From contig DASSBA010000081.1 of the NCBI GenBank assembly GCA_035699205.1, positions 2,273 through 66,272 on the forward strand: a stretch of 64,000 bases of DNA, in the 5' to 3' direction. Origin of the DNA: Gemmatimonadales bacterium. Lineage in GTDB: Bacteria > Gemmatimonadota > Gemmatimonadetes > Gemmatimonadales > GWC2-71-9. Position 1 is the first letter of the stretch. Every line of letters starts with the position of its first letter. The notes beneath the pieces are model-generated. The model was not told the origin of the DNA, searched no databases, and saw only the letters and a list, made by a program, of their open reading frames with translations. This document shows, in pieces, positions 8,004-52,744 of the stretch. The translations under genes and the position numbers were made by a program.

Positions 8004-8366
8004 TGCTGCACCCGGCCGGACCAGGTCCTCAGCGGACCGGCGTCACGCGGACACCCTGGCCGACGGCCCGTGTGCCACGGCCCGTCCGGCTGCTCGGCTT
8101 ACGATAGTGGCGGCGCCGGAGGCGGGCGGACGCTGCTCGCGGCGGGGCCACGGCCGGCCGCGGTATGGCCAGCACGGACCAGTCCCGTCGAGCCGTCCTG
8201 GGCGCGTGTACGGACCGCCGCCTCGCCGCCAGCGCGAGCGCGGTCAGCACGGATTGGGCGATGACTCCGTCGCGGAGTATCAAGCTGGACATTTGCGAGC
8301 CTGTGGGAGACCGGCTAACATACCGGCCCGCGGATAATTCACGGTTAGAAACCGGTTAGTGAGCCC

Positions 8367-11240
8367 ATGGCAGGTCCCACACTCCGTCTGTTCACCCTTG
8401 GCGGCCTCACCCTCGAGCGGGATGGGCAACCGATCGGCGGCATCGGCAACCGAAAGGTGCCGCTGATCCTGCTGGCGCTCCTTGCGGGGCACGGCGCGCA
8501 GGGGATCAGCCGGGACAAGCTGGTGGCCTACCTCTGGCCCGATAGCGACGAGGCGAGGGCCCGCAACAGCCTCAAGCAGGTGCTGTTCGGCCTGCGCCGG
8601 GAGCTGGGCGATTCGCTGCTGATGTCGGCCGGTCCCACCCTCCGCCTCGACCCATCCGCAATCGGATCCGATCTCGCCGACTTCGACGCCGCTCTCATGG
8701 CCGAGGATTTGGCCGCCGCGGCTGAGCTGTACCGCGGTCCCTTTCTGGACGGATTCTTCCTGCCGGGTCGTCTCGAGCTGGAGCGCTGGATCGAGACCGA
8801 TCGTCAGCGGCTCCATCGTGTACACGTGGAGAACCTCGTCCGCCTGGCTCGGCGGGCCGACGCCGAGCACGACCTGGTCCTGGCGGTCCGCTGGTGGCGG
8901 CAGGCCTCCGCCGCCGACCCGTTCAGCGCCGATGCCGCCCTCGGCGCCATGCGTGCGCTGGCCGCGACCGGCGACCGCGCCGGGGCGCTGGAGCACGGCC
9001 GGTCCTACGAGGCCGCCCTCGCCGCCGAGCTGGGGCTCCCGGCCGAGCCCGCGGTCCGAGAGTTCGCCCGATCCCTCCGGATCCCCGACCCGGCGCCGCC
9101 GGTCGCCATCGGGGCACCGCCGGCCGCCGATGCCTTCCACCCGCAGGCGCTAGCCGCGGCAATGGCCGTCTCGACCCCCCTGGCAGTGCCGGCCGGCCGG
9201 GCGCGACCGGTGGCGGCGCGCTGGACCGGCTACCTCCTCCCGCTGATCCTGGTGCTGGCCATCGCCGGCGCCGTGCTGCTGCTGCGGAGCAGCGCGCCGG
9301 ACGCCGTCGCCCCGGGCGCGCCCGCGACGCTCACGGTCCTGCCGTTCGAAGCGGTGGGTGACGCGAGCGGCGATCTCGGACGCGGCCTCGATGCGCTCCT
9401 CTCCTCCGGACTCGACGGCGTGGCGGATATTCGAGCGGTGCCGACCGTCCCGGCGGGTGGCAGGGGCGGGACGCCGGGTGGATTGACCGGCTCGGCGGCC
9501 TCGGAGACGGCCCGGCGCTCCGGCGCCCGGCTCTACGTGGTAGGCCGACTGGTGGCGGATCGGGACAGTCTGCGCGCCACCGCCTCGCTCCACGACCGCG
9601 CCAACGCCGACCGCGAGGTGAGCCGCGCCCAGGCGACGGTCTCACGGGACGAGCTGTTCACCATGGCGGACGAGCTCGTGCGCGGGCTGGTGGCCGACCG
9701 GGTCGGCGGGCCCGGCGAGCGGCTGGCCAGGGCCGCCGCGGTGAGCACCCGGTCGCTGCCGGCGCTCAAGGCCTACCTGGACGGTGAGCAGCGGCTCCGG
9801 CACGACGAGTACGTCGCCGCCGTCGATGCCTTCAACCGCGCCGTCAGGGCCGACAGCGCATTCGGGCTGGCCTATTACCGGCTCAGCGTGGCCGCGGACC
9901 GGGCGGGACGCGACGAGACGTCCCTCTGGGCCGCCCGCCTGGCCAGCCGGTTCAGCGCCGGCCTGTCCGAGCACGACCAGCGCCTGGTGCTGGCCTATCT
10001 CACCGTCCGGAACGGGCGGCTGGACGAGGGCGAGCGGATCTATCGCGGGATCGTCGCGGACTACCCGCAGGACGTCGAGGCCTGGCTCCAGTTGGGCGAT
10101 CTGCTGCTGCACGGCAATCCGTTGCGCGGACGCTCCGCGCTCGAGGCACGCGAGGCCTTCGAACGGGTGCTGGCGCTCGCGCCGGACCAGGGCGACGCGC
10201 TCGTGCCGCTCGCGCGCATCGCCTCGCTCGAAGGGAAGCGCACCGAGGCGGACTCGCTGCTGCGCCGCGCGGAAGCCACCGTGCCCGCGGCCGCCCTCGA
10301 CCTCCGGGCCATCCGTACCTTCGCGCTGAACGACCGTCCCGGCCACGAGCGGGCGACGCGCGATCTCCTGGCCGACCGGTCGATTCTGCCCCGCCGGCTC
10401 GCGTTCGACGTGGCGGTGAAACTCGGCGATCTGGCCGGCTCGGCGCGCTTCGCGGGACTCCTCGTCCGCGCGTCCGCCACCTGCGACGTGCACGCGATGG
10501 GGCGGCGGATGCTGGCGCAGGTCGCGATCGCGCACGGACGGCTCGGTGTGGCGGACGGCGAGCTCGCGCGCGCGGCGCCGTGCGATCCGGGGGCAGCCCT
10601 GGAACACCGCGCGCTTCTGGCCGTGCAGCCGTTCGCGAGCCCGGACACCTCCGACCTCGAGGAGCTCGCGCGCGACCTCGGCGTCGCGGCCGACTCGGTG
10701 CTCGGGCACCCGGCGCGCGAGTACTACGCCGGTCTCGTCGCGATCGGCCTCGGCGATAGCCTGACCGCCGCCGCCGACGCGCGCGCACTCCTTGCCGCAG
10801 GGGATTCGACGGCCACCGGCGACCTGTCCCGCACGTTCGGCCGGAGTCTGCGCGCGCGGGTGCTGTGGCACGCCGGTCGCCCGGCCGAGGCACTGGCGGA
10901 GCTCGAGGCGGCCGGATGGGAGCGCACGGCGCGACTCTCGGTGGCGGAGGCCTCGGACCGCTATCTCCGGGCGGAGCTGCTCCACCGTCTGGGCAGGGAC
11001 GAGGAGGCGATCGGGTGGTATCGGTCCATCGCTCAGCGGGCGTCCTACGAGCTGGTGTATGTGGCGCCGGCCGAGCGCCGGCTCGCGATGATCTACGACG
11101 CCACCGGGGATGAGGCGGCCGCGCGTGAGCACTACCGGCGGTTCATCGACCTGTGGCGGGAGGCGGATCCGGAGCTGCAGCCGGCGGTGGGGGCGGCGGA
11201 GCGGCGGCTGGGGGAGCTGGAGGGGGCGACGGCGGGATGA
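8367..11240 (+). CDS. Membrane-anchored SARP/BTAD-family transcriptional regulator with periplasmic TolB-like and TPR modules
   Basis: N-terminus LRLFTLGGLTLERDG...LVAYLWPDSDEARARNSLKQVLFGLRREL (OmpR-type wHTH plus BTAD). One TM segment (WTGYLLPLILVLAIAGAVLLL). Then a TLTVLPFEAVGD... module and TPR-like repeats. Confidence 0.8.
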   Translation: MAGPTLRLFTLGGLTLERDGQPIGGIGNRKVPLILLALLAGHGAQGISRDKLVAYLWPDSDEARARNSLKQVLFGLRRELGDSLLMSAGPTLRLDPSAIGSDLADFDAALMAEDLAAAAELYRGPFLDGFFLPGRLELERWIETDRQRLHRVHVENLVRLARRADAEHDLVLAVRWWRQASAADPFSADAALGAMRALAATGDRAGALEHGRSYEAALAAELGLPAEPAVREFARSLRIPDPAPPVAIGAPPAADAFHPQALAAAMAVSTPLAVPAGRARPVAARWTGYLLPLILVLAIAGAVLLLRSSAPDAVAPGAPATLTVLPFEAVGDASGDLGRGLDALLSSGLDGVADIRAVPTVPAGGRGGTPGGLTGSAASETARRSGARLYVVGRLVADRDSLRATASLHDRANADREVSRAQATVSRDELFTMADELVRGLVADRVGGPGERLARAAAVSTRSLPALKAYLDGEQRLRHDEYVAAVDAFNRAVRADSAFGLAYYRLSVAADRAGRDETSLWAARLASRFSAGLSEHDQRLVLAYLTVRNGRLDEGERIYRGIVADYPQDVEAWLQLGDLLLHGNPLRGRSALEAREAFERVLALAPDQGDALVPLARIASLEGKRTEADSLLRRAEATVPAAALDLRAIRTFALNDRPGHERATRDLLADRSILPRRLAFDVAVKLGDLAGSARFAGLLVRASATCDVHAMGRRMLAQVAIAHGRLGVADGELARAAPCDPGAALEHRALLAVQPFASPDTSDLEELARDLGVAADSVLGHPAREYYAGLVAIGLGDSLTAAADARALLAAGDSTATGDLSRTFGRSLRARVLWHAGRPAEALAELEAAGWERTARLSVAEASDRYLRAELLHRLGRDEEAIGWYRSIAQRASYELVYVAPAERRLAMIYDATGDEAAAREHYRRFIDLWREADPELQPAVGAAERRLGELEGATAG

Positions 11241-11304
11241 CCGTGGAACATGACCGGCAGCGGTGAACGCGGGCGACCGGACGCGAAGCCGGGCCAGTGC
11301 GAAA

Positions 11305-11361: not shown

Positions 11362-12735
11362 TCAGGGCTTCACATTCGTCTTCACTTCCGCGGGAGCATT
11401 GAAGGTCTCGACGTCGCGCCCCACGACGCCGGTGATGCCGGATGCATCGGTGCTGCTCACCGTGATGATCAAACCGCCGGTCTTCGTCACCGACAAGTGG
11501 AACGTCGCATAGCCGGGTTGCAGCGGGCCGCCGGCGGTGGCCGAGGCCGACTTCGTGATTGCCGAAACGTCGTCCGGCCCGGTGTTGTCGCACTCTTTGT
11601 TCCCCGCCAGCGCGGTGTTCTGCCCGTTGTTGTTCGCCCCATGCATGTACACGCAGACGCCATTCACTCCGAGGCCATCGTCGGTCTTGGCTCGGACGAT
11701 TACTTCGTAGGGCATCTTGCGAACGGACATGGTGGCCGGTGGTGCCTTCACATAGCTGAACGTGATGCTCGGCACGGGCTTGTTGGCGAACTCGCTCCTG
11801 AGGCCACCGGCCGAGCCGCCGATGGTCCTGGTGCCGGCGAACAGCGGCTGCGGGGTGAGGAATTTGACCAGCCGCTGCACGAGGACCCGCGCGCCCCAGG
11901 ACTGCGGGATCGAGCTGATCGAGGCATCGCAGACGTAGTCCGCGTCGTGATAGGCCAGCACGCCGAAATCGGACTCGCTGACCATGCTGGTCGGCTCGCT
12001 GCTCGCGAGGCACAGTGCGACGGTGGCCCCGTCGCCGCCGAACGGCACGGAGGGCCGGATTGCCTCCCACTGGTACTCGCTGGTCGAATAGCCACCGATA
12101 TCCGCGCCCGCCAGGGGAATCCCATAGATCAGCGCGCGCTCGGAGAGAACCTGGCTCCAGGGGAGCGCAGTGCCTGGCGCAACGAGATCGTTGGGATCCT
12201 GCGGAGGAGCCACTCCCGATAGCCGCTGGGTTACGCCGACCGTTGTGCGCGACACCACCGGTGTGTTGCCACTGGCCGGGCCGCGAACCTCGTAGGCACC
12301 CGGCACCGCCGGATCAAGCGACGGAGTGAAATCGAGCGCGTCGAAGTTGGACGGGAAGTCGCTCGAGGTGCCTGCCTTGTACATGCACTTGATCAGCTCC
12401 TTCGTCAGCTCGGAGCCGGTGCTGGCGGCCGTGTTCCCGCCCTTGACTGCAGCGGCGATCAGCTCCATGACGTTGAACCCGCTGGCCTGTGCGGCGGCAG
12501 TGTATGGGCTCGCGGTCATCTCGTCGACGAAGCCCCTCGCCTGCTGAGTCGTCGCCGGGTCGGTGAAATAGCCGCTGACGAGCGATGGGAACGCACTGCT
12601 GTTGCAGGCGAGGGTGGGGGCCGGGCGGAACTCCGGCTGTCCGGGAGCAACCGGACCCGAGTCATTCCGGTCCGCGCACGCGATCACCAGCATCCCGACC
12701 GCGATGGGGAGCATGCCAAGAACACGGCGAGCCAT
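11362..12735 (-). CDS. Secreted lipoprotein of unknown function (C-terminal Ig-like beta domain likely)
   Basis: MARRVLGMLPIAVGMLVIAC has a lipobox. AAGGAG lies 9 nt upstream of ATG 12735. No recognisable catalytic motifs. Confidence 0.7.
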   Translation of the reverse strand: MARRVLGMLPIAVGMLVIACADRNDSGPVAPGQPEFRPAPTLACNSSAFPSLVSGYFTDPATTQQARGFVDEMTASPYTAAAQASGFNVMELIAAAVKGGNTAASTGSELTKELIKCMYKAGTSSDFPSNFDALDFTPSLDPAVPGAYEVRGPASGNTPVVSRTTVGVTQRLSGVAPPQDPNDLVAPGTALPWSQVLSERALIYGIPLAGADIGGYSTSEYQWEAIRPSVPFGGDGATVALCLASSEPTSMVSESDFGVLAYHDADYVCDASISSIPQSWGARVLVQRLVKFLTPQPLFAGTRTIGGSAGGLRSEFANKPVPSITFSYVKAPPATMSVRKMPYEVIVRAKTDDGLGVNGVCVYMHGANNNGQNTALAGNKECDNTGPDDVSAITKSASATAGGPLQPGYATFHLSVTKTGGLIITVSSTDASGITGVVGRDVETFNAPAEVKTNVKP

Positions 12736-12807
12736 GGTATGACACTCCTTGATGGTCCTCGGCAAGGAGGACTCCCGAAGGAAACCTGTGGTATGAGAGA
12801 GCAATCA

Positions 12808-12979: not shown

Positions 12980-15610
<2,631 letters not shown>

Positions 15611-15684: not shown

Positions 15685-16515
15685 TCAGCCGACCATCACC
15701 GCCGCCAGCGCGTCCCGCATTGCGGCCGCCGACTGCCACCGGTCCTCGGGTGCCTTGGCCAGCGCGCGGCTGATGCCCGCCGCCAGTTCGGCCGGGATGC
15801 CGGGCTGGAGGGTCCGCAGGTCGGGCGCCGGCTGGTTGAGATGCATCTGCAGCACCACCGCCTCGTTCCGGTGCACGAACGGCGGCTGGCCGGCCAGGCA
15901 CTCGAACAGCACGCAGGCGAGCGAGTAGATGTCGCTCCGGAGATCGATCTCCTTGAGCGCCGTGATCTGCTCGGGGCTCATGTAGGTCGACGTGCCGACG
16001 GCGATTCCCGAGCGCGTCAGCCGGTCGCTGCCGGAGGCCCACACCGCGCGGGCAATCCCGAAGTCGAGCAGCACCGCGCCGCCCGGAGAGACCACCACGT
16101 TCTCGGGCTTCACGTCCCGGTGGATGATCCCGTGTCCGTGCGCGTGCTCCAGCGCGTCGAGCAGATGGTCCGCCAGGCGGAGCGTATCCCCGACGGAGAG
16201 CCGCCCCCGCTGCGACATGAACTCGCGCAGGGTGGCACCCTCGACGAACGTCATGACGTAATAGACCAGCCAGTCACGCTCACCCGAATCCAGCAGATGG
16301 GCGATGTGCGGATGGTCCAGCTGCGATGCCAGCTTGATCTCGCGCAGGAACCGGTCGGCCGCGACACTGACCAGCAGCTCCGGATGCAGGATCTTGAGCG
16401 CGACCGGCTCCCCTCCCGGCTGGCGGGCCAGGAAGATGCGGGCGTTTCCGCCCTTGCCGATCTCGCGCTCGACCTCGTACTGCCCCTGGAACGCCTGGCG
16501 GACCAGTGCCAGCAT
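15685..16515 (-). CDS. Ser/Thr protein kinase, catalytic domain only (about 276 aa)
   Basis: Motifs IGKGGNARIF, VALKIL, HRDVKPENVVV, DFGIA and MSPEQ. ATG 16515 chosen; the longer track ORF (to 17016) would overlap the upstream gene and hairpin E3. Confidence 0.8.
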   Translation of the reverse strand: MLALVRQAFQGQYEVEREIGKGGNARIFLARQPGGEPVALKILHPELLVSVAADRFLREIKLASQLDHPHIAHLLDSGERDWLVYYVMTFVEGATLREFMSQRGRLSVGDTLRLADHLLDALEHAHGHGIIHRDVKPENVVVSPGGAVLLDFGIARAVWASGSDRLTRSGIAVGTSTYMSPEQITALKEIDLRSDIYSLACVLFECLAGQPPFVHRNEAVVLQMHLNQPAPDLRTLQPGIPAELAAGISRALAKAPEDRWQSAAAMRDALAAVMVG

Positions 16516-16587
16516 GTCGCGGCGAATGAGCCGGTCCTTGTGGGGGACTCCCGAATGGTTGCAGTGCGGGCGGCTTCGCGCAAGATC

Positions 16588-16674
16588 GAAAGGCGGAAAG
16601 GCGGAAAGGCGGAAAGGGACAAACCCTTCCCTGCGTGTTTCCTTTCTGCCTTTCCGCCTTTCCGCCTTTCCCCC
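16588..16674. repeat. Tandem-unit hairpin element E3 (8-nt unit GGCGGAAA / TTTCCGCC)
   Basis: Arms 16588-16617 and 16641-16670 are complementary at 29/30 positions, each arm about 3.5 tandem units. Sits directly after the stop of the M50-HlyD gene. Confidence 0.85.
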
Positions 16675-18725
16675 TACAGCAGCAGATCCGTCCGCACCCG
16701 CTTCCGGATCCCCCACCAGATGGATCCCCACACGTTCGATTCCCGGATGGTGACGCTCGCCTCCCCAGTCATCCCCGGCCGCCACCGCGCCGGGCCGCCC
16801 ATCCCGATCCGCGCCTCCACCGTCCCCGAGCCGGCCGACGAGAGCTGCGCCACCCCCGTGACCCGCGCGTCCATCGTCCCGCCGTCCGCATGGAACACCA
16901 GCCGCGCCCGCTGTCCGGCGCGCACCCGCGTGGCCCCCGCGCCGGTGAGCGCGATCCGGACCTCCAGCGAATCCGGTTGTCCCAGCTCCATCAGCCCCTG
17001 GCCAAGGCTTACCCACTGGCCCGTGAGCTCCTCCGGCCGCCGGGTCACCACCACCCCGGCGGTCAGCGCCCGGACGGTCAGCGCCTGCTGCTCCACGGTC
17101 ATCCCCTCGAGCCGGGCGGCGTCGGTGGCGCGCTCGGCGGCCAGTCGGGCGACCTCGGACGTCCGCCCGGCGGCGCGCGCCTGCGCCTCCCGGGCCACCA
17201 GCGAATCCACCCGCCGCCCCGCGGCCAGGGCCGCGCGCTCCAGGTCCAGGTCACGCACCTCGACCAGCGGCATGCCCGACTCCACCCGGGTGCCCTCGCG
17301 TACGTACACCCGGGAGACCAGTCCGCTGTCGGGGGCGGTGAGCGGCAACGACAGCGCGGGCGCGACGGCGAACTGCCCGGTCACCGTGATCGGCCGCGGC
17401 ACGAGCGCGCCGAGCACGAGCAGCATCGCCGCCCCCGCGAGCAGCCGGTCGCGGAAGCGGCCGGTGTCGATCCTCGCCCGGAGCTCGCGCCAGCCGGCCG
17501 CGACCGTCTGGGCCGCGCTCCGGACCGCCTGCCGGGTCATCAGCCAGACGGCGATGGCGAAGAGCACGCCGCCGGCGAGGCCGAGCGCGCCGTCGAGCCA
17601 GCCGTACACGGTGCCGGCCACGACCAGCATGATCGAAGTGATATAAACCGCCGCCAGCACGGCGTAGACGATGAAGATCCGCTGTTCCCGCTCGTCGGCC
17701 GGCGGGGCGGGAACCTCGAGTCGGAATACCCGCGTCTTCACCAGCCAGCCGAGGTGCGCGAAGGCACGCTGCCGGAGGTTCGGCACCTCGAGGTAGTCGC
17801 TCAGCGCGAAGTAGCCGTCGAGCGGGATCAGCGGGTTGGCGTTCATGACGACGGTGGTGATCCCGCCGAAGAGCACGGCGGAGAGCGCGATGTGCGAGAC
17901 CAGCGTGTCCGGCTCCGCCGCCCACCAGACGATTGCCGCGAGGCTGGCCGCGACGAGCTGGATCCACGAGCCCGCCGCGGTCACCCAGAGCCGGGCCTTG
18001 AGCTCGGGAAACGTCCACGCATCGTTCACGTTGCAGAAGAATGCCGGCTCGAAGTACAGCAGCATCGCGCCGATCTCGTGCACCTGTCCGCCGAAGTGTT
18101 TGCAGGTATATCCGTGCCCCAGCTCGTGGACCACGATGATGGCCGTGGCCGTGGACCAGAGCACGAACAGCTCCCAGGCGGAGTAGCGGAAGTGATAGAA
18201 GTCGCCGAACGCCGCCATGAGCTCGGGCCATTTGACGGCGACGACGAGCAGGTAGATGGCGAACAGGAACACCGAGGCGACGAGGAAGCCGCGGGTGAAC
18301 ATCCAGCGGATGTAGGGGATGGTGCGGTCCATGAAGTGATCGGGATCGCCGACCGACCAGCGGAGCCGCAGGATATCGCCCTGGAACGGTCCCGTCGCGA
18401 GACGCTGCCGGCGCTGAGCGCGGAGCCGTTCCATCATGAGCACGGAGCGTTCACCCAGCGTGCGCTCGAGCAGCCCCATCGTCTTGAGCTTGTTCGCGAA
18501 CCCCTCGACCGCCGCGGCCGAGACCCGGAGCCCGGCCGCGACCAGCTCCTCGGCGATCTCGGCCGCGCTGCGGGTGCCGTCGAATTGTCGAATGACGTTC
18601 ACTTCCACCGGCCGGAATCGGAAATACTTCCTGGTCGTGGGGTCCTTCAGGATGAAGCTCTGCTCGCCGCGGTAGGTCTGCTCGACGAGCGTCAGGTCGG
18701 CGCGGAGCTTCGGCGCGGTGGTCAC
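16674..18725 (-). CDS. Fusion protein: PqqD/RRE-like N-terminal domain, M50 (site-2 protease) membrane metalloprotease, C-terminal HlyD/MFP-like domain
   Basis: HELGH zinc motif and NANPLIPLDG motif within a multi-TM core. N-terminus FRFRPVEVNVIRQFDGTRSAAEIAEEL...GLLE. C-terminus has lipoyl-like, coiled-coil and barrel MFP pattern. GTG start overlaps the upstream TGA (GTGA). Confidence 0.8.
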   Translation of the reverse strand: MTTAPKLRADLTLVEQTYRGEQSFILKDPTTRKYFRFRPVEVNVIRQFDGTRSAAEIAEELVAAGLRVSAAAVEGFANKLKTMGLLERTLGERSVLMMERLRAQRRQRLATGPFQGDILRLRWSVGDPDHFMDRTIPYIRWMFTRGFLVASVFLFAIYLLVVAVKWPELMAAFGDFYHFRYSAWELFVLWSTATAIIVVHELGHGYTCKHFGGQVHEIGAMLLYFEPAFFCNVNDAWTFPELKARLWVTAAGSWIQLVAASLAAIVWWAAEPDTLVSHIALSAVLFGGITTVVMNANPLIPLDGYFALSDYLEVPNLRQRAFAHLGWLVKTRVFRLEVPAPPADEREQRIFIVYAVLAAVYITSIMLVVAGTVYGWLDGALGLAGGVLFAIAVWLMTRQAVRSAAQTVAAGWRELRARIDTGRFRDRLLAGAAMLLVLGALVPRPITVTGQFAVAPALSLPLTAPDSGLVSRVYVREGTRVESGMPLVEVRDLDLERAALAAGRRVDSLVAREAQARAAGRTSEVARLAAERATDAARLEGMTVEQQALTVRALTAGVVVTRRPEELTGQWVSLGQGLMELGQPDSLEVRIALTGAGATRVRAGQRARLVFHADGGTMDARVTGVAQLSSAGSGTVEARIGMGGPARWRPGMTGEASVTIRESNVWGSIWWGIRKRVRTDLLL

Positions 18726-19699
18726 GGCGTGGCTTTCACCACCTCTTCGCCCGCCGCGATGCCGCTCACCACCTCGACCCGGTCGCCGTCGAGGTCCGCG
18801 CCGAGGACGACGGCGCGCAGCGCGGTGCGGCCGTTCTCCTGCACGAGGGCAAAGCCGTCCCGGGCCACCGCCGCGCGAGGAATCGCCAGCACCCGCCGCC
18901 GCTGCGCGCCAAGCTGGACGGTGACGCTGCTGCCGGGCGTGAGCGACGAGCCGGAAGCGAGCTGCAGCACCAGTTCGCGCGTCCCGCTGGCCGGATCGAG
19001 CACGGGCGAGGCGCGCACCACGCGCGCGCCCGCGCTCGCCCCGCCGGCGGTGAGCACCCGGGCCTCGGCGCCCACGCGAAGGCCGGCCGCCGCGCCCTCG
19101 GGCACGTGGACCGTGGCCAGGACCGGCGCCAGCGCGGTAACGCGGAACAGCGAGTCGCCGGCGTTGACCAGCCGCTGGACCCGGGCCATCCGCGCCGTGA
19201 CCACCCCGGCGAACGGCGCGACGATCCGGGTGAGGTCGTAGTCCCGCTGCGCCTGGCGGAGCGCCAGCTCGGCGTCGCGGTGCTCGAACTCCACCTGCTC
19301 GCTGTCCGCCCGCGTGACCACCCCCGCGGTGGCCAGGGCGCGCTGGCGCTCGACCCGCTGCGACGCGTTGGCCGACCGCTCGCGCGCCTGCGCGAGGGCG
19401 ATCTCCTGATCGGTGCTCTCGAGCCGGGCGAGCGGCTGGCCCGCGGACACCCGGCTGCCCATGTCCACCAGGATGCTCTCGACGATGCCCGACGACCGCG
19501 CCACGACCGCCGCGTCGTGTTCCACGTACAGTTGCGACGGCAGGGTGAGCGGCCGGTCCACCGTGGTGCTCTCGGCGGTCGCCACCGCGCCGGAAGGAGT
19601 GGCTGCGAGGGATGCGGAGGCGGCGGTCTGGACCGGAGGCGCGACCTCCCCGCCGCAGGCCGCCAGGAGGAGCGTCACGGGAACGACGAGGCGGGTCAT
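18722..19699 (-). CDS. HlyD-family periplasmic adaptor (membrane fusion protein) lipoprotein
   Basis: MTRLVVPVTLLLAACGG has a lipobox. MFP pattern (LARLESTDQEIALAQA..., IVAPFAGVVTA). ATGA overlap with the upstream gene. Confidence 0.85.
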   Translation of the reverse strand: MTRLVVPVTLLLAACGGEVAPPVQTAASASLAATPSGAVATAESTTVDRPLTLPSQLYVEHDAAVVARSSGIVESILVDMGSRVSAGQPLARLESTDQEIALAQARERSANASQRVERQRALATAGVVTRADSEQVEFEHRDAELALRQAQRDYDLTRIVAPFAGVVTARMARVQRLVNAGDSLFRVTALAPVLATVHVPEGAAAGLRVGAEARVLTAGGASAGARVVRASPVLDPASGTRELVLQLASGSSLTPGSSVTVQLGAQRRRVLAIPRAAVARDGFALVQENGRTALRAVVLGADLDGDRVEVVSGIAAGEEVVKATP

Positions 19700-21630
19700 G
19701 ACCAGATCCTCCACCAGAGAAGCCGGGCCCAGCGCGATGGCGCCCGGAGGAGCCGGGTGGCCGCCGATGCGGGATCGGTGAGCACGCGGACGTACGCGGC
19801 CATGCTCGGCCTGAGGACTCCGTCCGGGTTGGCGACGACGGCGCGGACCGGATAGCGCACCCCGGCGCCCGCCGTGTCCGCCGCCGCCACCGGCGCGATC
19901 GAACGCACCCGCCCCGTAAAGGTCCGCTGCGGGACCGCGTCGACCCGGAGCCGCACCTCCTGCCCTGGCCGGACTCGGCCGATGTCCTGCTGCGCCACCC
20001 CGAACTCGAGCTCGAGGGAATCGGTGCGGCCGATCGTCAGGAGCAGGTCGCCCTCTTCGAGCGAGCTCCCGACCCGGTCCTCCACGTGCGGCGTGAGGAC
20101 GACGCCGCTGACCGGGGCGCGCAGCGTGGTGAGGTCGACCTCCTCGTCCAGCAGCGCGACCTCGCGCCGGAGCGCGTCGCCGCGGATCCGCTGCAGCCGC
20201 TCCTCCGAGGGATCGCCCCGGCTGGCGGCCAGCGCGGCGAGCCGGTCGGCCGAGGCCGCCTCGGCGGCCGTGGCCTCCCGGTCCGCGCGCAGACTGGTGG
20301 CGCGGAGGTAGGCCACCGGCGTCCCCCGCGACACCAGGCTCCCCTCGCTCACCGGGAGTCGCTCGACCACGCCCGCCACGAGCGCGCGCACCGGGGCGTA
20401 GGCCGTGGCGCGGAAGCTCGCCGCCTGGCCCGGGACGCGGAACGGCCAGCGAACCAGGAGCAGGAGCCCCAGCGCGACCGCGACGGCCGCCGCGTAGATC
20501 TGGATTCGCCGCTTGGGCATTGCACGGAGCGCCTCGCGCCTGGCCGCCAGCGCGCCGAGCGCGTCCACCATCGGCACCTGGTGATACAGCTGCGCGTTCC
20601 GCAGCGCCACCGCGGTCTGGTTGGCCAGGATCGCCGCTACCTCGCGCTGCGTGGGCGTGGCGAAATCCACGGTGGCCGACTCGAACACCAGGACCCCGAG
20701 CACCCCCTCCTCGTCCTTGAGCGGCAGGTACAAGCCGCTCTCCACGCCGTCGGTTTCCAGGTCCTGGCCGAAGATGGTCACGAACATCCGTTCGGCGTCG
20801 GAGCCCGGGTAGACGCGCTCGCTCAGATACAGCGGCTCGCCCCGCCCGGCGGCCCACTCCGCCCGGGCCACCAGGTCCTGCAGCTTGGGATCCTTGGGGT
20901 CGACGGTCTCCTCACCCGCCACGGCCCGAACGTCGCAGCGCCCCTTCTCGTAGAGCGCGACGGCGGCCCGGTCGAACGGGAGCGCGCGGGAGGCGAGGTT
21001 GACGACTGACTGGAGCACGCGGTCCAGGTCGAGCGTCGCCGTGATCTCGCGGCTGATGTCCAGCAGCAGCGCGAGGTCCCCGGCGCGCTTCTCGGCGCCG
21101 TGAAGCTGTGCGTTCCGGAGAGCCAGGGCGCCGGTGGCGGCCAGCCCCTCGAGCAGCTCGCGGTCATGCTCCTCGAACACGCCGGAGCCGGTGAGCTTAT
21201 TGGTGACCTGGATGGCGCCGACCGTGTTGCCGTTGACCACCATGGCCGTGGCCATGACGTTCACCGCGATGGTCTCACTCGGGTGGTCCAGGTTCGCGTC
21301 GAACCGTGGATCGGCCGTTGCCTGGGTGACGATGGTCGTCTTCTGCTGCTGCGCCACGTCGCCCACGAACCCGGTCCCGACCGGCACTTCGGCACCGACC
21401 AGCTGATCCCCGCGTCCGCCGATCGCGATCCGGCACCGCAACACGTCACCGTCGGCGATCCAGATCGAGCCTCCCTCCGCGCCGAGCGCGGCGAGGACGC
21501 GGTGAAACACCTTCGGCAGCAGCTCGTCGAAGTCGAGCGACGCGCCGAACTCCAGGCCGATCGAGTGGAGCAGCCGGAGACGCTCGACTTCTTCGCGCAG
21601 CTCGTCGGTCGAGGTGGTGGGAGCGCTCAT
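19696..21630 (-). CDS. Tandem-GAF cytoplasmic sensor fused via a TM segment to a HlyD/MFP-like periplasmic domain
   Basis: Two GAF-like blocks (each ending ...ALRNAQLH/LY). TM segment IYAAAVAVALGLLLLV. Then an MFP pattern (LRAPVSGVVLT..., RLRVDAVPQRTFTGRV). Confidence 0.75.
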   Translation of the reverse strand: MSAPTTSTDELREEVERLRLLHSIGLEFGASLDFDELLPKVFHRVLAALGAEGGSIWIADGDVLRCRIAIGGRGDQLVGAEVPVGTGFVGDVAQQQKTTIVTQATADPRFDANLDHPSETIAVNVMATAMVVNGNTVGAIQVTNKLTGSGVFEEHDRELLEGLAATGALALRNAQLHGAEKRAGDLALLLDISREITATLDLDRVLQSVVNLASRALPFDRAAVALYEKGRCDVRAVAGEETVDPKDPKLQDLVARAEWAAGRGEPLYLSERVYPGSDAERMFVTIFGQDLETDGVESGLYLPLKDEEGVLGVLVFESATVDFATPTQREVAAILANQTAVALRNAQLYHQVPMVDALGALAARREALRAMPKRRIQIYAAAVAVALGLLLLVRWPFRVPGQAASFRATAYAPVRALVAGVVERLPVSEGSLVSRGTPVAYLRATSLRADREATAAEAASADRLAALAASRGDPSEERLQRIRGDALRREVALLDEEVDLTTLRAPVSGVVLTPHVEDRVGSSLEEGDLLLTIGRTDSLELEFGVAQQDIGRVRPGQEVRLRVDAVPQRTFTGRVRSIAPVAAADTAGAGVRYPVRAVVANPDGVLRPSMAAYVRVLTDPASAATRLLRAPSRWARLLWWRIWS

Positions 21631-21703
21631 GGAGGTGCTTGGTGGCTCGGCGTGAACGAAAGGGCCCCGGCCCCCAGACGAACGGGGAGCCGGAGCCCGG
21701 ATC

Positions 21704-21724
21704 GGCGCCCCGTTCCGGGGCGCC
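21704..21724 (-). terminator. Stem-loop downstream of small ORF A (possible attenuator or processing site)
   Basis: GGCGCCCCG-TTC-CGGGGCGCC, a 9-bp GC stem, 16 nt after the ORF-A stop. No clear U-tract. Confidence 0.4.
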
Positions 21725-21739
21725 GCGAGAAGATCGCGA

Positions 21740-21871
21740 CTAGTTGAGCCGCATCGGCGCGATTTTCTCTTCGAGCTCTTCGACGCCCAGCTCGACGTCC
21801 TTGGACGGAACCGGCTTCTTCGGCTGCTGTTCGGGAGTCTTGGTCCGGGACTGCTCGTCGTGCTTGCTCAT
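21740..21871 (-). CDS. Small ORF A, 43 aa, candidate precursor peptide
   Basis: MSKHDEQSRTKTPEQQPKKPVPSKDVELGVEELEEKIAPMRLN. Shares the ELxVEELExxIAP block with ORFs B and C. Confidence 0.55.
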   Translation of the reverse strand: MSKHDEQSRTKTPEQQPKKPVPSKDVELGVEELEEKIAPMRLN

Positions 21872-21924: not shown

Positions 21925-22077
21925 CTACTTGTTCCAGAGCTTGCCCGGCGCGATGCGGGCCTCGAGCTCCTCGACCGAGAACTCCACCGCGTCGGCGTCC
22001 TTGCCGGTGGCGTTACGGATGGTGGCCTTCTGCTCGGGGGTCAGCTCGATCCGGAGATGGTCCTTGGCGTTCGACAT
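21925..22077 (-). CDS. Small ORF B, 50 aa, candidate precursor peptide
   Basis: MSNAKDHLRIELTPEQKATIRNATGKDADAVEFSVEELEARIAPGKLWNK. AGGAG lies 6 nt upstream of the ATG. Full-length paralog of ORF C at 31328-31477. Confidence 0.65.
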   Translation of the reverse strand: MSNAKDHLRIELTPEQKATIRNATGKDADAVEFSVEELEARIAPGKLWNK

Positions 22078-22142
22078 GGCGTGCTCCTGGGTGACGAAGG
22101 GCTGGCGGTGTGGCCGACAGGGCCGGCGAACAACTGGAAGCG

Positions 22143-22175
22143 AAGCTAGCTGGCCTCCGTGAAAAGTCCGTGAAT
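22143..22175 (-). promoter_or_regulatory. Heptamer direct-repeat (11-nt period) activator-type promoter of small ORFs B/A
   Basis: Minus strand reads ATTCACG-GACT-TTTCACG-GAGGCCAGC-TAGCTT. The same architecture occurs upstream of ORF C. Confidence 0.6.
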
Positions 22176-22196
22176 GCGTACTTGCCCTTCCGGGAA

Positions 22197-24485
22197 TTGA
22201 CGGTACGTTCTACCTGTCCTCCCCAAGGACCGCCCCTGCACGCCTTCGCCCTCCGCCTGCTCGGAGCACCCGCCCTCGTTGCCCCCGAGGGGGGTCCGGC
22301 CGCGCCCGTCCCAGGCGCCAAGCCTATGGCGCTGCTCGCCTTCATGGCTCTCGAGCCGCGGCCCCACAGCCGCGAGTCGCTGGCCGGCCTGCTGTGGGGG
22401 GAGTCCCCCGAGTCCGAGGCTCGGGCCTCGCTGCGGCAGGCGCTCAAGCAGCTCCGCGAGGTGCTGGGCGACCGGCTTCGCGCCGACCGGACACTGGTCG
22501 AGCTCGCGGCTCCGCTCGCCTGCGACGTCCTCGAGTTCCGCCAGGCGGCGGAAAGCGAGCCGGCCCGGGCGGCCGGCTTCGAAGTCCCGGCCTTCCTGGA
22601 GGGCTTCTCGGTCCGCCACGCGCCGCTGTTCGACGAATGGGTGGCCGCCACCCGGGTCGCACTTCTCCGTCAGTTTCACCAGGTGCTCGGCCGGCTGGCG
22701 CGCGACGCGATGGGCCAGTGGCGCTGGCGTGACGCGGTCGAGCTGGCCGACCGGTGGCTGGCCAACGATCCGGTTTCCGACGAAGCGGCGCAACTCGCGG
22801 TGGAGGCCCGCTATCTCTCGGGCAATCGAGGCGCGGCGCTCGCCCGGTTCGGCGAGTATCGGGCGCTGCTCGCGCGCGAGATGGGCTGCGAGCCGAGCCG
22901 GGCGCTCCAGGCCTTGGTGCGCCGCGTGGAGGCCGACCGGGGCGGAGCCGAACCGCGGCCGATCACCGACGAATGGTACGTGCACGCCCCCGCCTTCGAG
23001 GCGAGCCTGGTGGGGCGCGAGGCGCAGTGGAATTCGCTGACCGGCGCCTGGAAGCGCGCGGCCCGCGGCCACGCCGGCATCGTGCTCGTCGAAGGCGAGT
23101 CTGGCGTGGGCAAGTCGCGGCTGGCGGACGAGTTCCTGCGCTGGGCCGTGGCCGAAGGCGCCACCGTGCTGCGCGGGCGAAGCCACGACGGCAGCCTCGG
23201 CATCCCCTACGAGCCGGTGGTCGAAGTGCTGCGCGGCGCGCTCGACGCGCCTGGCCTGGCCGCGACCTCCGCGGAGTGGCTCGTGGAGGCCGGCCGCCTC
23301 CTGCCGGAGCTTCGGGAGCGCTTCCCCGGCCTTCCCGCCGGAAGCGAGCCGGATGCGTCCGAGGGTTGGCGGCTCTCCGAGGGCGTGGCCCAGGTCCTGG
23401 CCGCCATCGCGGCCGAGCGTCCGCTCGTCGTTCTGATCGACGACCTCCAGTGGTGCGACGAGGATAGCTGCAATCTGCTTCGCTTCCTCAGCCGGCGCCT
23501 CGAGCGGTCACCGGTGCTGTGGCTCGGGCTCCTGACCCTCGGCGAGGTCGAGCGCGACGCGCCGGCCGCCCGGCTCTGCCGGGTGCTCCGCGCCAAGGCG
23601 CATGCGGAGGTCGTGTCCCTCGGCCCGCTGAGCGAGGAGGAGGTGTGGCAGATGGTGCGCGAGATGGGGCACGTCAGTGCGCCCACGGGCGGCCGCCGCT
23701 TCGCCGGCCGCCTTTTCGGCATCACGGCCGGCAATCCGTTCTACATCATCGAGCTGCTGAAGACCATGTTCGCGCAGGGACTGCTCGCGATGGAGCAGAA
23801 CACCGGGGAGTGGACGGTGTCGCCGGAGGTGGTCGGCGCCGGATGCGAGCTGCCGGTCTCCCAGACGGTGCAGGCCGCCATCGCCGAGCGGGTCGAGCGG
23901 CTGCCCGACGAGCTCCGCGACGTGCTGATCACCCTGGCGGTGAGCGGCGTGGGGTGCCGCCCGGACGTGCTGTCCCACGTCCACGGAATCTCGCGCCTGC
24001 ACGCCGCGGCCGACGGGGACGCCCTGGTACACCGGCGTCTGGCGGTCGAGGAGGCGGGCACCTACCGGTGCGCCCATCCGGTCATCGCGCACCTGGTGCG
24101 TGATGGGCTCACCGCCTCCCGCCGGCAGGAGGTGCACCGGAGTCTGGCGCTCGCGCTGGGGCTCGTGCTGCGGCCCGAGGAGGCACCTTCCGCCGCCGGC
24201 GAGTTGGCCCGGCACGCCGACCGGGGCGGCGAGCCCGGCCTGGCATATCGATACGCGCTGCTCGCCGCCGAGGGAGCGGTGTCGCGCTACGCGTACACGG
24301 AAGCGCTGTCCTGGCTCGACCTGGCGGCCACATCCGCGCGCGGCGCCTCCGAGAGCGAGGTCGTGGACCAGAGGACCGCGGACGTACTGGAGAGGGCGGG
24401 GTGGCGCGAGGCGCCGCGCGGGACGCTGGTGCCGGTGACCCGCGAGATCGTCACCGAGGATCTGGATCTGCGCGTCCGCGGATAA
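22197..24485 (+). CDS. SARP/AfsR-like regulator: wHTH-BTAD, P-loop ATPase, C-terminal helical repeats
   Basis: Motifs FALRLLGAPALV and SLAGLLWGESPESEARASLRQALKQLR, with Walker A GESGVGKSRL. Start uncertain: the track start GTG 22110 would put the ORF-B promoter inside the CDS, so TTG 22197 is chosen. Confidence 0.75.
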   Translation: MTVRSTCPPQGPPLHAFALRLLGAPALVAPEGGPAAPVPGAKPMALLAFMALEPRPHSRESLAGLLWGESPESEARASLRQALKQLREVLGDRLRADRTLVELAAPLACDVLEFRQAAESEPARAAGFEVPAFLEGFSVRHAPLFDEWVAATRVALLRQFHQVLGRLARDAMGQWRWRDAVELADRWLANDPVSDEAAQLAVEARYLSGNRGAALARFGEYRALLAREMGCEPSRALQALVRRVEADRGGAEPRPITDEWYVHAPAFEASLVGREAQWNSLTGAWKRAARGHAGIVLVEGESGVGKSRLADEFLRWAVAEGATVLRGRSHDGSLGIPYEPVVEVLRGALDAPGLAATSAEWLVEAGRLLPELRERFPGLPAGSEPDASEGWRLSEGVAQVLAAIAAERPLVVLIDDLQWCDEDSCNLLRFLSRRLERSPVLWLGLLTLGEVERDAPAARLCRVLRAKAHAEVVSLGPLSEEEVWQMVREMGHVSAPTGGRRFAGRLFGITAGNPFYIIELLKTMFAQGLLAMEQNTGEWTVSPEVVGAGCELPVSQTVQAAIAERVERLPDELRDVLITLAVSGVGCRPDVLSHVHGISRLHAAADGDALVHRRLAVEEAGTYRCAHPVIAHLVRDGLTASRRQEVHRSLALALGLVLRPEEAPSAAGELARHADRGGEPGLAYRYALLAAEGAVSRYAYTEALSWLDLAATSARGASESEVVDQRTADVLERAGWREAPRGTLVPVTREIVTEDLDLRVRG

Positions 24486-29845: not shown

Positions 29846-31204
29846 TCAGACGGTCCGGGAAAGGCGCTCCAGAGCGCCCGCGGCCGCATACGCATCGAGC
29901 TCCATCGCGAGATTGCGCAGGAAGAAACGGCCGGTGGTGGTGACGACGAGCCGGTCCGGCTCGAGCCGCACGAAACCTTCGTCGGCAAACGGACGAAACC
30001 GCGCGAGCGGGTCCTCGTCGCCGCCAAGCGATGCCAGGCAGGCGTATGGGAGCTCCAGCGTGCAGAGCAGCCGGTCGATCGCCGCGCGGCGCACCCGGTC
30101 GTCCCGGGAGAGCGCGTGGCCGCGCACGATGGGCAGTGTGCCGGCATCGATCGCCCGCTGGTACCGTCCGAGATGGGCGTCGTTCTGCACGAACCGGCCG
30201 TCCACCTCCCCGATGCCGCTCGTCCCGAACGCCAGCAGGTGTGGCGCGGGGTCGGGAACGTAGCCCATGAAGTTGCGGCGCAGCCTGCCGTCGTCCAGGG
30301 CCAGCGACAGCTCATCGCCCGGCCGGGCGAAGTGGTCGAGCCCGATCCACTGGTACCCGGCCGCCGTGAGCGCCTCGACCGCCAGCCCGAAGAGCGCGAA
30401 CCTCGCGTAGCGATCGGGGAGCGCGGCCCGGATCCGGCGCTGGTTGGGCCGCGCCCACGGGACGTGCGCGTAGCCGAAACAGGCGATCCGGTCGGGTGCC
30501 ATCTCGATCACCCGCTGCAGCGTGCGGGCGAATGACGCCTCGGTCTGCGCCGGCAGCCCGTAGACCAGGTCGAAATTCACGCTGGAGAAGCCGAGGTCCC
30601 GCGCGGCGTCGCGCAATTCCTCCACCCTGGCCTCGGACTGGATCCGGCCGATCGCCTCCTGCACGCCAGGGTCGAAATCCTGGACCCCGACGCTCAACCG
30701 GTTGAAGCCGAGCGCCCGGAGCAGGCCGAGCTGCTCGACCGATGCGACCCGCGGGTCGATCTCGATGGCGGTCGGGGCGTCCGGCGCCAGCTGGAAGCGC
30801 TCGTGCAACGCGTCGGCCAGTTGTTCCATGGCGGCCGGTCCCAGGAAGTTGGGGGTGCCGCCGCCCCAATGGACCTCCGCCGCCCGACGGCGCGCACCGA
30901 GCGCGTCGCAGACCATTCCCATCTCACGAATCAGGCGGCCGACGTAGGCCTGCTGCACGTGATCGTGGCGGGTGACCGTGGCGTTGCAGCCGCAGTACCA
31001 GCAGCGCGCGACGCAGAACGGGAGGTGGAGGTACAGGGCGACGGGGTCTTCCGGGAGCCGAGCCAGGTGGCCCAGCGCCTCGCGGTAGTCACGCTCACCG
31101 AAGCTCGCGCTCCAGCTCGGGATCGGGGGGTAGCTGGTGTACCGCGGGCCGGGTCGGTCGTAGCGGTCGAGCAGCTCGCGGGGAATCGTAGCGGCGTCGG
31201 GCAT
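29846..31204 (-). CDS. hemN: Oxygen-independent coproporphyrinogen III oxidase (radical SAM)
   Basis: N-terminal YDRPGPRYTSYPP, radical SAM CVARCWYCGC. 452 aa. Confidence 0.85.
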   Translation of the reverse strand: MPDAATIPRELLDRYDRPGPRYTSYPPIPSWSASFGERDYREALGHLARLPEDPVALYLHLPFCVARCWYCGCNATVTRHDHVQQAYVGRLIREMGMVCDALGARRRAAEVHWGGGTPNFLGPAAMEQLADALHERFQLAPDAPTAIEIDPRVASVEQLGLLRALGFNRLSVGVQDFDPGVQEAIGRIQSEARVEELRDAARDLGFSSVNFDLVYGLPAQTEASFARTLQRVIEMAPDRIACFGYAHVPWARPNQRRIRAALPDRYARFALFGLAVEALTAAGYQWIGLDHFARPGDELSLALDDGRLRRNFMGYVPDPAPHLLAFGTSGIGEVDGRFVQNDAHLGRYQRAIDAGTLPIVRGHALSRDDRVRRAAIDRLLCTLELPYACLASLGGDEDPLARFRPFADEGFVRLEPDRLVVTTTGRFFLRNLAMELDAYAAAGALERLSRTV

Positions 31205-31327: not shown

Positions 31328-31477
31328 TTACTTCGGCTTGGCCGTCATCGGCGCGATCCGCTCCTCGAGCTCCTCGACGCCGAGCTCGATTGCCCGGGCG
31401 TCCTTCCCCGTGGCGGCCTTGACCTGGGCCTTCTGCTCTTCGGTCAGCTCGATGCGGATGTGATTCTGGTCGGACAT
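31328..31477 (-). CDS. Small ORF C, 49 aa, paralog of ORFs A/B
   Basis: MSDQNHIRIELTEEQKAQVKAATGKDARAIELGVEELEERIAPMTAKPK. AGGAG lies 6 nt upstream of the ATG. Corresponds to the C-terminal part of track ORF 31328..31759. Confidence 0.65.
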   Translation of the reverse strand: MSDQNHIRIELTEEQKAQVKAATGKDARAIELGVEELEERIAPMTAKPK

Positions 31478-31520: not shown

Positions 31521-31553
31521 AGTCTACGGCGCCTGCGTGAATTCAGGGTGAAT
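31521..31553 (-). promoter_or_regulatory. Heptamer direct-repeat promoter of small ORF C
   Basis: Minus strand reads ATTCACC-CTGA-ATTCACG-CAGGCGCCG-TAGACT, with the same spacing as the ORF-B promoter. Confidence 0.6.
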
Positions 31554-52643: not shown

Positions 52644-52744
52644 GATACGGCCGGGCCTTCAAGGTGCCGGGATCATTCCCGCGCATTCCGGGTCGCCGTC
52701 GTTCGCCGCTGGACGGTGGCGGGCGCCGTCCTTATCCTCAACGC

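Follow-up and report, generated by a model that had tools for sequence, protein, structure and literature searches.

A predicted RRE, site-2 protease and HlyD adaptor fused in one protein and encoded with candidate precursor peptides in a Gemmatimonadales bacterium

Results

A three-part membrane protein encoded in an operon with small peptides

We analysed a 64-kb stretch of DNA (hereafter the window; 72% G+C) from a soil bacterium of the order Gemmatimonadales and, within it, a gene for a protein of 683 amino acids (aa) that combines a predicted RiPP recognition element (RRE; RiPP, a peptide made by the ribosome and modified after translation), a membrane core of the M50/site-2 protease (S2P) type and a periplasmic adaptor domain of the HlyD type. 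The gene is the last of three adaptor genes which, from their start/stop overlaps (ATGA at 19696-19699 and GTGA at 18722-18725), are predicted to be translationally coupled, and genes for small precursor-like peptides lie upstream of them (Table 1). The initial annotation of this stretch had described the protein as a fusion of these three parts. The strings that it quoted are present (KLRADLTLVEQTYRGEQSF... at residues 6-87, HELGH at 200-204 and NANPLIPLDG at 295-304), and the family matches, folds and motifs described below bear the three-part reading out, so that we hold the architecture with high confidence.

Over most of its protease half the protein matches the NCBIfam model NF041824 (daptide biosynthesis intramembrane metalloprotease; E 2.5e-58, residues 19-407 against model positions 13-375 of 379), with a score of 198 bits that falls below the equivalog cut-off of 300 bits. 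A weaker match was obtained with the NCBIfam model of the YydH/LiaK epipeptide protease (E 1.4e-9). The full-length AlphaFold2 model (mean predicted local distance difference test score, pLDDT, of 75) places three strands (residues 12-37) and three helices (39-82) before a helical membrane core, which is followed by an adaptor-like C-terminal domain.

A separate AlphaFold2 model of residues 1-108 (pLDDT 85) shows the order beta1-3 then alpha1-3, a three-stranded sheet plus three helices like that of solved RRE structures, and its best Foldseek matches in the PDB are RRE proteins: TbiB1, lasso B1, CteB, TigE and TglHI stand at the top, and RRE-containing proteins occupy ranks 1-8, 10, 13 and 15 (Foldseek probability 0.92-1.00). 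TbiB1 with its leader peptide was matched at E 9e-4 with a TM-score of 0.66-0.68 on the target, and a lasso-peptide B1 protein with its leader at 0.76; the RRE of the sactisynthase CteB was matched as well. The lasso B1 and other discrete RREs (TbiB1, PDB 5v1u/5v1v, and 6jx3) are thus the best structural matches of residues 1-90 (target-normalised TM-score 0.66-0.76), although identity to them is just 16-21% and the domain described here forms the N-terminus of a membrane protease instead of part of a lasso protease complex. Pfam found no PqqD match (PF05402) in the 683-aa protein and no PqqD sequence profile reached its threshold; the PqqD-related NCBIfam model ScmD aligned with residues 25-80 at E 0.0026, and two relatives (P0193 and P0223) match PqqD at E 2e-4, under the cut-off. 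The most conserved parts of the domain are the beta3 strand KYFRF and alpha3, and the N-terminal KDP...YFRF segment is kept among distant homologues. The earlier proposal of an RRE-like N-terminus is upheld by the fold search and by the relationship with the site-2 protease of daptide clusters, which is likewise fused to an RRE; on the structural models this domain has an RRE fold.

The membrane core carries an HExxH motif on one predicted transmembrane (TM) helix and the Asp of an NPxxxLDG-type motif on a later one, as expected for M50/site-2 enzymes. Pfam Peptidase_M50 (PF02163) scored 22.8 bits on residues 195-267, under its cut-off of 27.2, and was matched at 28.7-35.1 bits in six of ten distant relatives (P0144, P0154, P0193, P0245, P0251 and P0208). 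Invariant positions are H200, E201, H204, N297, P298, D303 and G304. In 32 close and 16 distant homologues, HELGH and the Asp of LDG do not change, and the catalytic H200/E201/H204/D303 persist down to 26-35% identity; the M50 motifs noticed at the outset are therefore intact across close and distant homologues.

At the C-terminus, Pfam matched residues 447-647 to HlyD_3 (45.5 bits, cut-off 22.2) and HlyD_D23 (39.3 bits, cut-off 30), and Foldseek retrieved MacA, MexA, AcrA, ZneB and EmrA at E of about 1e-14. The AlphaFold2 model contains two antiparallel 26-residue helices (493-518 and 522-547) flanked by beta structure. Behind its TM anchor this part of the protein thus has the lipoyl/barrel-sandwich, alpha-hairpin and beta-barrel of the HlyD family, and what had been described as a membrane-fusion-protein pattern turns out to be a complete adaptor module. 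Hydropathy and loop charges (positive-inside pattern) predict seven TM helices, the HELGH helix included, in an N-in/C-out orientation. The N-terminal domain, the loops 205-244, 297-347 and 398-424 and the active-site motifs would lie on the cytoplasmic side and the adaptor in the periplasm, a predicted topology that matches what the function proposed in the Discussion needs.

The closest relatives of the protein all come from Gemmatimonadales metagenome-assembled genomes (MAGs). A word-index search retrieved 1206 homologues; the best 120 of these are all of about 683 aa and 59-97% identical, and go by names such as 'putative peptide zinc metalloprotease protein' (IMG) and 'HlyD family efflux transporter periplasmic adaptor subunit' (NCBI). 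An exhaustive search with residues 1-420 against clusters formed at 50% identity matched 10,513 of them at E<=1e-3, of which 2195 reach E<=1e-30; the best 150 are mostly 680-950 aa long. M50 and HlyD domains were found in all ten distant representatives inspected (30-42% identity; one from a Blastocatellia MAG, phylum Acidobacteriota), with a sub-threshold PqqD match in two of them. From these matches the fusion is common and occurs in several phyla; the initial description of it as unusual was overstated, because the RRE-M50-HlyD architecture is very common.

Table 1. Coordinates and strand of the features described in the window
Feature	Position	Strand	Remarks
RRE-M50(S2P)-HlyD fusion protein	16674..18725	-	683 aa; GTG start overlapping upstream stop (GTGA)
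Predicted N-terminal RRE (PqqD-like) domain, residues ~5-88	18462..18713	-	AlphaFold2, Foldseek, invariant columns
M50/site-2-protease membrane core, residues ~145-397, six predicted TM helices	17535..18293	-	
HELGH	18114-18128	-	M50 zinc motif
NANPLIPLDG	17814-17843	-	M50 motif
Seventh predicted TM helix and periplasmic adaptor (lipoyl/barrel-sandwich, 2x26-residue alpha-hairpin, beta-barrel), residues ~424-683	16677..17456	-	
Peptide A, 43 aa: ...VELGVEELEEKIAP followed by MRLN	21740..21871	-	
Peptide B, 50 aa: ...VEFSVEELEARIAP followed by GKLWNK	21925..22077	-	AGGAG 7 nucleotides (nt) before ATG
Orphan peptide C, 49 aa: ...IELGVEELEERIAP followed by MTAKPK	31328..31477	-	also written ...ELGVEELEERIAP followed by MTAKPK
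GAF-GAF-TM-HlyD protein of 644 aa, with two GAF domains in the cytoplasm, a TM helix (375-393) and an adaptor domain in the periplasm	19696..21630	-	
Periplasmic adaptor of the RND_mfp type, a 325-aa lipoprotein (lipobox LLAAC)	18722..19699	-	ATG overlaps stop of GAF-HlyD gene (ATGA)
BTAD (SARP-type) and AAA_16/STAND regulator	22110..24485	+	divergent from peptide B
Soluble Ser/Thr kinase, kinase domain only	15685..16545	-	
Ser/Thr kinase with TM helix (338-356) and extracytoplasmic domain with TPR repeats	12980..15610	-	
Promoter box of peptide B: TTCCCGG-N15-TTCACGG-N4-TTCACGG, 8 nt, TAGCTT	22143..22196	-	spacing 22 and 11 nt
Promoter box of peptide C: TTCACCC-N4-TTCACGC, 8 nt, TAGACT	31521..31552	-	
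Two G+C-rich hairpins between peptide A and GAF-HlyD gene	21662..21724	-	

Precursor-like peptides with an invariant boundary motif and hypervariable tails

The initial annotation had also pointed to candidate precursors next to the protease gene. Three are present in the window, and in its six-frame translation their boundary motif occurs three times, each time inside such a small open reading frame (ORF). Two of these lie at the operon, and the third, peptide C, is located 10 kb away, directly upstream of hemN (29846-31204). This radical-SAM gene was considered as a maturase and rejected, as its product is a genuine HemN (456 bits, cut-off 325). A Pfam scan of the window peptides gave no match; many peptides of the family are named 'uncharacterized small protein (DUF1192 family)' in IMG, presumably from a shared LSVEELEERIA-like segment.

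Related loci have the same arrangement. Upstream of the machinery are one or two genes for peptides of 43-55 aa, in which an invariant VEELEE(R/K)IAP is followed by a hypervariable tail. Of 58 Gemmatimonadales loci with enough upstream sequence, 52 have a peptide ORF on the same strand within 900 nt upstream of the GAF-HlyD start (17 have one and 35 have two), and two further loci have one downstream of the protease gene. Starting from the peptides leads to the same place: P0310 and P0333, chosen solely because they sit on long contigs, both lie in the same type of operon. The case that would have spoken against the original proposal, orthologues that never co-occur with such small ORFs, is thus not what we find.

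The contrast between the two parts of these peptides is sharp. In an alignment of 95 of them, positions -13 to -1 (ELSVEELEERIAP) have an entropy of about zero, whereas the tail positions reach 2.5-3.6 bits and 91 of the 95 tails are distinct. Tails are 2-18 aa long (mode 7-9) and rich in Lys (18%), Pro (11%) and Arg (10%), with 0.5% Asp plus Glu, a Lys content that is striking for a genome of 72% G+C. The leader codons vary mainly at the third position (entropy 0.36, 0.16 and 1.09 bits at positions 1, 2 and 3). A profile search found 5541 relatives of the peptides; the 120 matches listed all have the motif and a tail, with 117 distinct tails among them, and three of these 120 (P0283, P0290 and P0320) carry two boundary motifs in tandem (for example, ...EELEERIAP VTLGLTELEDRIAP AQVFPTDSL), which suggests two cleavage sites or two cores. 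At short evolutionary distance the tails behave differently. In the closest relatives, whose protease is 91-97% identical, the GKLWNK tail of peptide B has 0 of 18 nt changed in three and its leader has 0-8 changes, while the tail of peptide A shows single-residue changes (MRLN, MRLS, MRLK and MKLN). Because GKLWNK is unchanged in close relatives and tails elsewhere are nearly all different, the tail is under constraint inside a lineage and diverges from one lineage to the next.

In three loci of other lineages the proportions of the peptide are reversed. L131 (three copies, at 939, 1306 and 1670, plus strand), L125 (999, plus strand) and L149 (1267, plus strand) have, directly upstream of RRE-M50-HlyD relatives, a leader of about 10 aa that ends in EELEERIAP and a core of 23-36 aa rich in Gly, Asn, Pro and Ser. 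Since the same motif precedes these long cores after so short a leader, it argues that EELEERIAP marks a leader/core boundary. On the evidence of this section we are fairly confident that the small peptides are the substrates of the fusion protease.

For 23 distant metagenome loci, the region upstream of the GAF-HlyD gene yielded no convincing small conserved ORFs, and all-against-all clustering of small ORFs returned mostly off-frame shadows of conserved genes. A second family of small ORFs was seen next to distant (25-30% identical) RRE-M50-HlyD genes, convergent with them and just downstream (for example, starting at 11304 on the minus strand in L113 and at 10479 on the minus strand in L146). 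These ORFs share the N-terminus MS[IV][EQ]KKSLIS..K..KKA..AS, after which come short basic units in tandem repeats that differ from locus to locus (QTAKHPGL x7, QKLGT x8, NALKS x8, KRQLT x5 or AVRP x15); they look like a family of multi-core precursors. They were seen in L102, L105, L106, L109, L113, L117-L119, L126, L128-L130, L132, L133, L135, L137, L139, L141, L144-L146, L150, L151, L153 and L157.

Conserved neighbouring genes

The gene order is kept in 80 Gemmatimonadales/Longimicrobiales loci, where the protease is 37-87% identical, and even metagenome loci whose proteins are only 25-35% identical retain the core of three adaptor genes. Both kinase genes lie downstream of the protease gene. 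The soluble kinase is the best-conserved product of the locus (75-93% identity where the protease has 51-87%), and kinase genes also flank the distant relatives L081, L113, L146 and L147; in another relative, L163, a PP2C phosphatase gene adjoins the regulator gene. The regulator ORF, read from the GTG at 22110, would encode 791 aa and overlap the promoter box of peptide B. Because its relatives are called at only 719-754 aa, its real start is probably 40-70 codons downstream.

Further from the operon, a protein of 480 aa (11362-12804, minus strand), which has a hydrophobic segment at its N-terminus and is matched by no Pfam or NCBIfam model, comes after the TPR kinase and recurs in the same position, at 28-35% identity, in L002, L003, L020, L037, L046, L069 and L077. 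A second BTAD protein, with TPR repeats (963 aa; 8349-11240, plus strand), has a weak match, far under the cut-off, to TIGR04510 ('putative peptide modification system cyclase'; E 2.6e-8), and a relative of it lies near one related locus (L038). At 47375-52658 (minus strand), two large adjacent ORFs, one for a 1016-aa protein like Eco57I/N6-methylases and one for an 800-aa helicase (SNF2/ResIII plus Helicase_C), suggest a restriction-modification or related defence module.

A shared promoter box upstream of peptides B and C

Activators of the Streptomyces antibiotic regulatory protein (SARP; BTAD/OmpR-type) class bind heptamer direct repeats with an 11-nt periodicity that end 8 nt before the -10 region. 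The box upstream of peptide B, which is conserved in an alignment of 14 upstream regions, and that of peptide C have this kind of layout (Table 1). The only matches to TCAC[CG]-N5-TTCACG in the window are the peptide B and peptide C sites, with 0.01 expected by chance; the pattern was written knowing the peptide C site and permits C or G at one position on its account. A composite box pattern, also written with that knowledge, finds the same two matches only, and its chance expectation of zero is partly circular because it was written after both sites had been seen. Since the box has a SARP-type repeat arrangement, the divergent BTAD-STAND protein is, by analogy, the likely activator of the peptide genes. 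The two hairpins that separate peptide A from the GAF-HlyD gene fold with an energy of -60.7 kcal/mol (z -3.4). They lack a U-tract and are a possible attenuator; a scan found no canonical intrinsic terminator after the peptide genes.

Discussion

The relatives of this locus fall into systems that share either its protease or its adaptors. In daptide biosynthesis, the RRE-fused site-2 protease MpaP acts as an RRE-dependent intramembrane leader peptidase, and the precursors have, directly before the core, the leader motif ELExMEAP, which RRE domains recognise (PMC10036551). The protein described here is homologous to MpaP/DapP (Ren et al. 2023, PMC10036551) over residues 19-407. In both systems several small precursors are encoded per genome and Ala-Pro stands right before the core, and ELEERIAP has Glu(-8), Leu(-7), Glu(-6), Ala(-2) and Pro(-1) in common with the daptide motif. 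The two differ in these respects: the 683-aa protein has an extra TM helix and a C-terminal HlyD adaptor; its locus is without the DUF-RRE, decarboxylase, aminotransferase, methyltransferase and ABC transporter of daptide clusters; daptide cores are aliphatic with a C-terminal Thr, whereas those found here are cationic, 2-18 aa long and varied at their ends; and daptides belong to Actinomycetota or Bacillota, while Gemmatimonadota is a diderm phylum. Membership in the daptide family was rejected on the score of the family model, the missing tailoring genes and the lack of a C-terminal Thr.

From the side of the adaptors, Kamneva, Poudel and Ward (2015) noted a conserved locus of GAF-HlyD, Peptidase_M50/HlyD-like and HlyD/biotin-lipoyl genes associated with a SecA_DEAD gene, of unknown function and type-I-secretion-like, in the PVC group (Planctomycetes, Verrucomicrobia and Chlamydiae), Proteobacteria, Nitrospirae and Chlorobi (PMC4452313). 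The same three kinds of protein are co-encoded here, likewise without an ABC transporter. The two differ in that no SecA_DEAD ATPase gene is found in the operon or the window, nor in four long distant loci, and in that the 2015 paper has no RRE, substrates or regulators (PMC4452313). The present locus is clearly a relative of the 2015 module that lacks the SecA_DEAD gene.

Other machines follow a similar logic with different parts. Peptidase-containing ABC transporters with HlyD adaptors (for example, RaxB/RaxA, CvaB/CvaA and HetC) also handle small ribosomal peptides: they recognise the leader, cleave it at the inner membrane and have an adaptor conduit that reaches the outer one. They do so with a C39 cysteine peptidase, a double-glycine motif and an ABC domain, in place of which the present locus has a zinc S2P and an RRE and no ABC domain; moreover, its protease and adaptor are joined in a covalent fusion, with two more adaptors present. 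Membrane M50 enzymes that free a short C-terminal product from a small precursor include Eep/RseP (pheromones), TglG and TmoG (pearlins) and EpeP/YydH (epipeptide), the products of the last three being very short; EpeP is thought both to cleave and to export (PMC10885120). Unlike the 683-aa protein, none of these has a fused RRE and adaptor. Eep/RseP have PDZ domains and cut hydrophobic, signal-peptide-like segments, and the pearlin enzymes remove a single modified residue. A further analogy is RRNPP signalling in Firmicutes (Rgg/SHP, PlcR/PapR), in which a short lineage-specific peptide derives from the C-terminus of a precursor, in some cases through an M50 protease, and the regulator gene adjoins and diverges from the peptide gene; there, however, the regulator belongs to an unrelated family, HTH-TPR and not BTAD-STAND, and the envelope here is diderm.

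The interpretation that we favour, and think somewhat probable, is that the locus encodes a leader-guided machine that processes and exports peptides, releasing short unmodified products that are possibly signals. In this scheme, the cytoplasmic RRE would capture the acidic ELEERIAP segment of the leader, by analogy with daptide ELExMEAP, and the S2P active site, open to the cytoplasm, would cut after Pro(-1) and free GKLWNK, MRLN and MTAKPK in this genome. We infer both steps because enzyme and motif are alike homologous to the daptide system, and place moderate confidence in the cleavage site. The three adaptors would then form a hetero-oligomeric periplasmic conduit to an unlinked outer-membrane factor, through which the short cationic peptide would exit; this conduit would do the job of a peptidase-containing ABC transporter and its adaptor, while the locus itself encodes no ATPase. 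The peptide genes would probably be activated through their SARP-type box by the divergent BTAD-STAND regulator, and the kinases perhaps also control expression. Our confidence in the export route is low to moderate. For the product, a lineage-specific extracellular signal seems the most likely role, and our confidence in any biological role is low. Insofar as they can be checked in silico, the elements of the initial interpretation all held.

Several observations weigh against such a machine. No gene for an ABC, RND or MFS transporter, an ATPase or a TolC-type protein was found in the conserved locus or the window, and the scheme has no energy source and no known translocator, although an outer-membrane factor or transporter could be encoded elsewhere in the genome. 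To our knowledge, site-2 proteases do not translocate peptides. The tails are cationic: their passive export would oppose the membrane potential, and the positive-inside rule would favour their retention. Nor are they hydrophobic, as daptide cores and the classical substrates of S2Ps are. The AlphaFold2 model is poor near the active site (pLDDT below 50 at residues 217-238 and 297-307). Finally, conservation over the 30 residues that precede the motif exceeds that of a typical leader, and for this reason the N-terminal fragment of the precursors may itself be functional.

The main rival, which we consider unlikely, is that proteolysis here is cytoplasmic and regulatory, and that its product, either the conserved acidic N-terminal fragment of 40 aa or the tail, stays inside the cell to act on the STAND/BTAD regulator, the GAF domains or the kinases, with the adaptors serving to anchor, oligomerise or sense the envelope. 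The unusual conservation of the N-terminal 30-40 residues, tails whose charge favours staying in the cell and the want of a transporter or ATPase at the locus all agree with this, as do the syntenic regulator and kinases, the PP2C phosphatase of one relative and the ligand-sensing STAND architecture of the regulator. What it accounts for poorly are three complete alpha-hairpin adaptors, kept from Gemmatimonadota to Blastocatellia, which are hard to explain without a periplasmic conduit, and the loci of other lineages whose leader is down to about 10 residues and the motif and whose core has lengthened to 23-36 aa, as if the variable part were the payload. It is improbable, in our judgement, that the locus is instead a type-I-secretion-like machine for other cargo, with the M50 protein mainly an inner-membrane pore and the ELEERIAP proteins accessory or regulatory. 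The module of Kamneva et al. is secretion-related with unknown cargo (PMC4452313), and distant relatives keep the three genes without ELEERIAP peptides; but the RRE and intact catalytic residues are kept throughout and point to peptide recognition and cleavage, those distant relatives have an adjacent small-ORF family of their own with a conserved N-terminus and variable repeats, and the SecA_DEAD gene is missing here.

Somewhat less probable again is a daptide-like or otherwise modified RiPP pathway in which tailoring enzymes encoded elsewhere modify the tails before release. The best family match is a daptide protease, the leader motif resembles ELExMEAP and one precursor copy is unlinked, which makes unlinked enzymes conceivable. 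Against this stand the want of an invariant C-terminal Thr and of an aliphatic-rich core, the lack of any MpaB/C/D/M-type gene in the conserved neighbourhood of more than 80 loci, a score of 198 bits under an equivalog cut-off of 300, and the identity of the radical-SAM gene beside peptide C as HemN. That the small ORFs are chance ORFs and the fusion an ordinary protease of regulated intramembrane proteolysis has next to no probability. High-G+C DNA does yield many spurious ORFs, but here third codon positions vary 3-7 times as much as the first two, the 5541 database relatives include motif and tail in all 120 matches listed, independent pipelines call these ORFs genes, and each of the three motif occurrences in the six-frame translation falls in such an ORF; the codon-position and synteny data refute this reading.

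As to novelty, the core of the module was noted in 2015, and its protease half has a relative in the leader peptidase of daptides. A literature search returned no description of an RRE-M50-HlyD fusion or of ELEERIAP peptides, no later work on the 2015 module, and nothing on linear-peptide signalling in Gemmatimonadota. What appears to be new is the combination of the RRE assignment, a large family of cognate precursors in which a daptide-like boundary motif stands before tiny, cationic and lineage-specific cores, the shared SARP-type promoter box, and the lack both of tailoring enzymes and of a transporter.

If the processing and export machine is real, it would supply candidate substrates and a recognition mechanism for a very common module (about 10,500 clusters) that has been without a function since 2015, and the RRE-guided site-2 leader peptidase would extend from Gram-positive daptides to diderm soil phyla. 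Recognition, cleavage and a periplasmic conduit would be united in one polypeptide with no evident ATPase. The products would be predictable exactly from sequence (GKLWNK, MRLN and MTAKPK) and could be synthesised, which would make linear-peptide signalling testable in Gemmatimonadota. A bolder and tentative version, which we think unlikely to hold as a whole, is that this is a tripartite exporter without ABC, RND or MFS component, in which the RRE-site-2 protease and the adaptors, one of them GAF-gated, cut unmodified, lineage-specific cationic pheromones of 3-12 residues and pass them across the diderm envelope, where they would be sensed by the syntenic membrane Ser/Thr kinase or the BTAD-STAND regulator and would auto-induce their own SARP-box promoters. 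Were that so, peptide quorum sensing would be widespread in Gemmatimonadota and related soil phyla, with relatives elsewhere using multi-copy repeat precursors.

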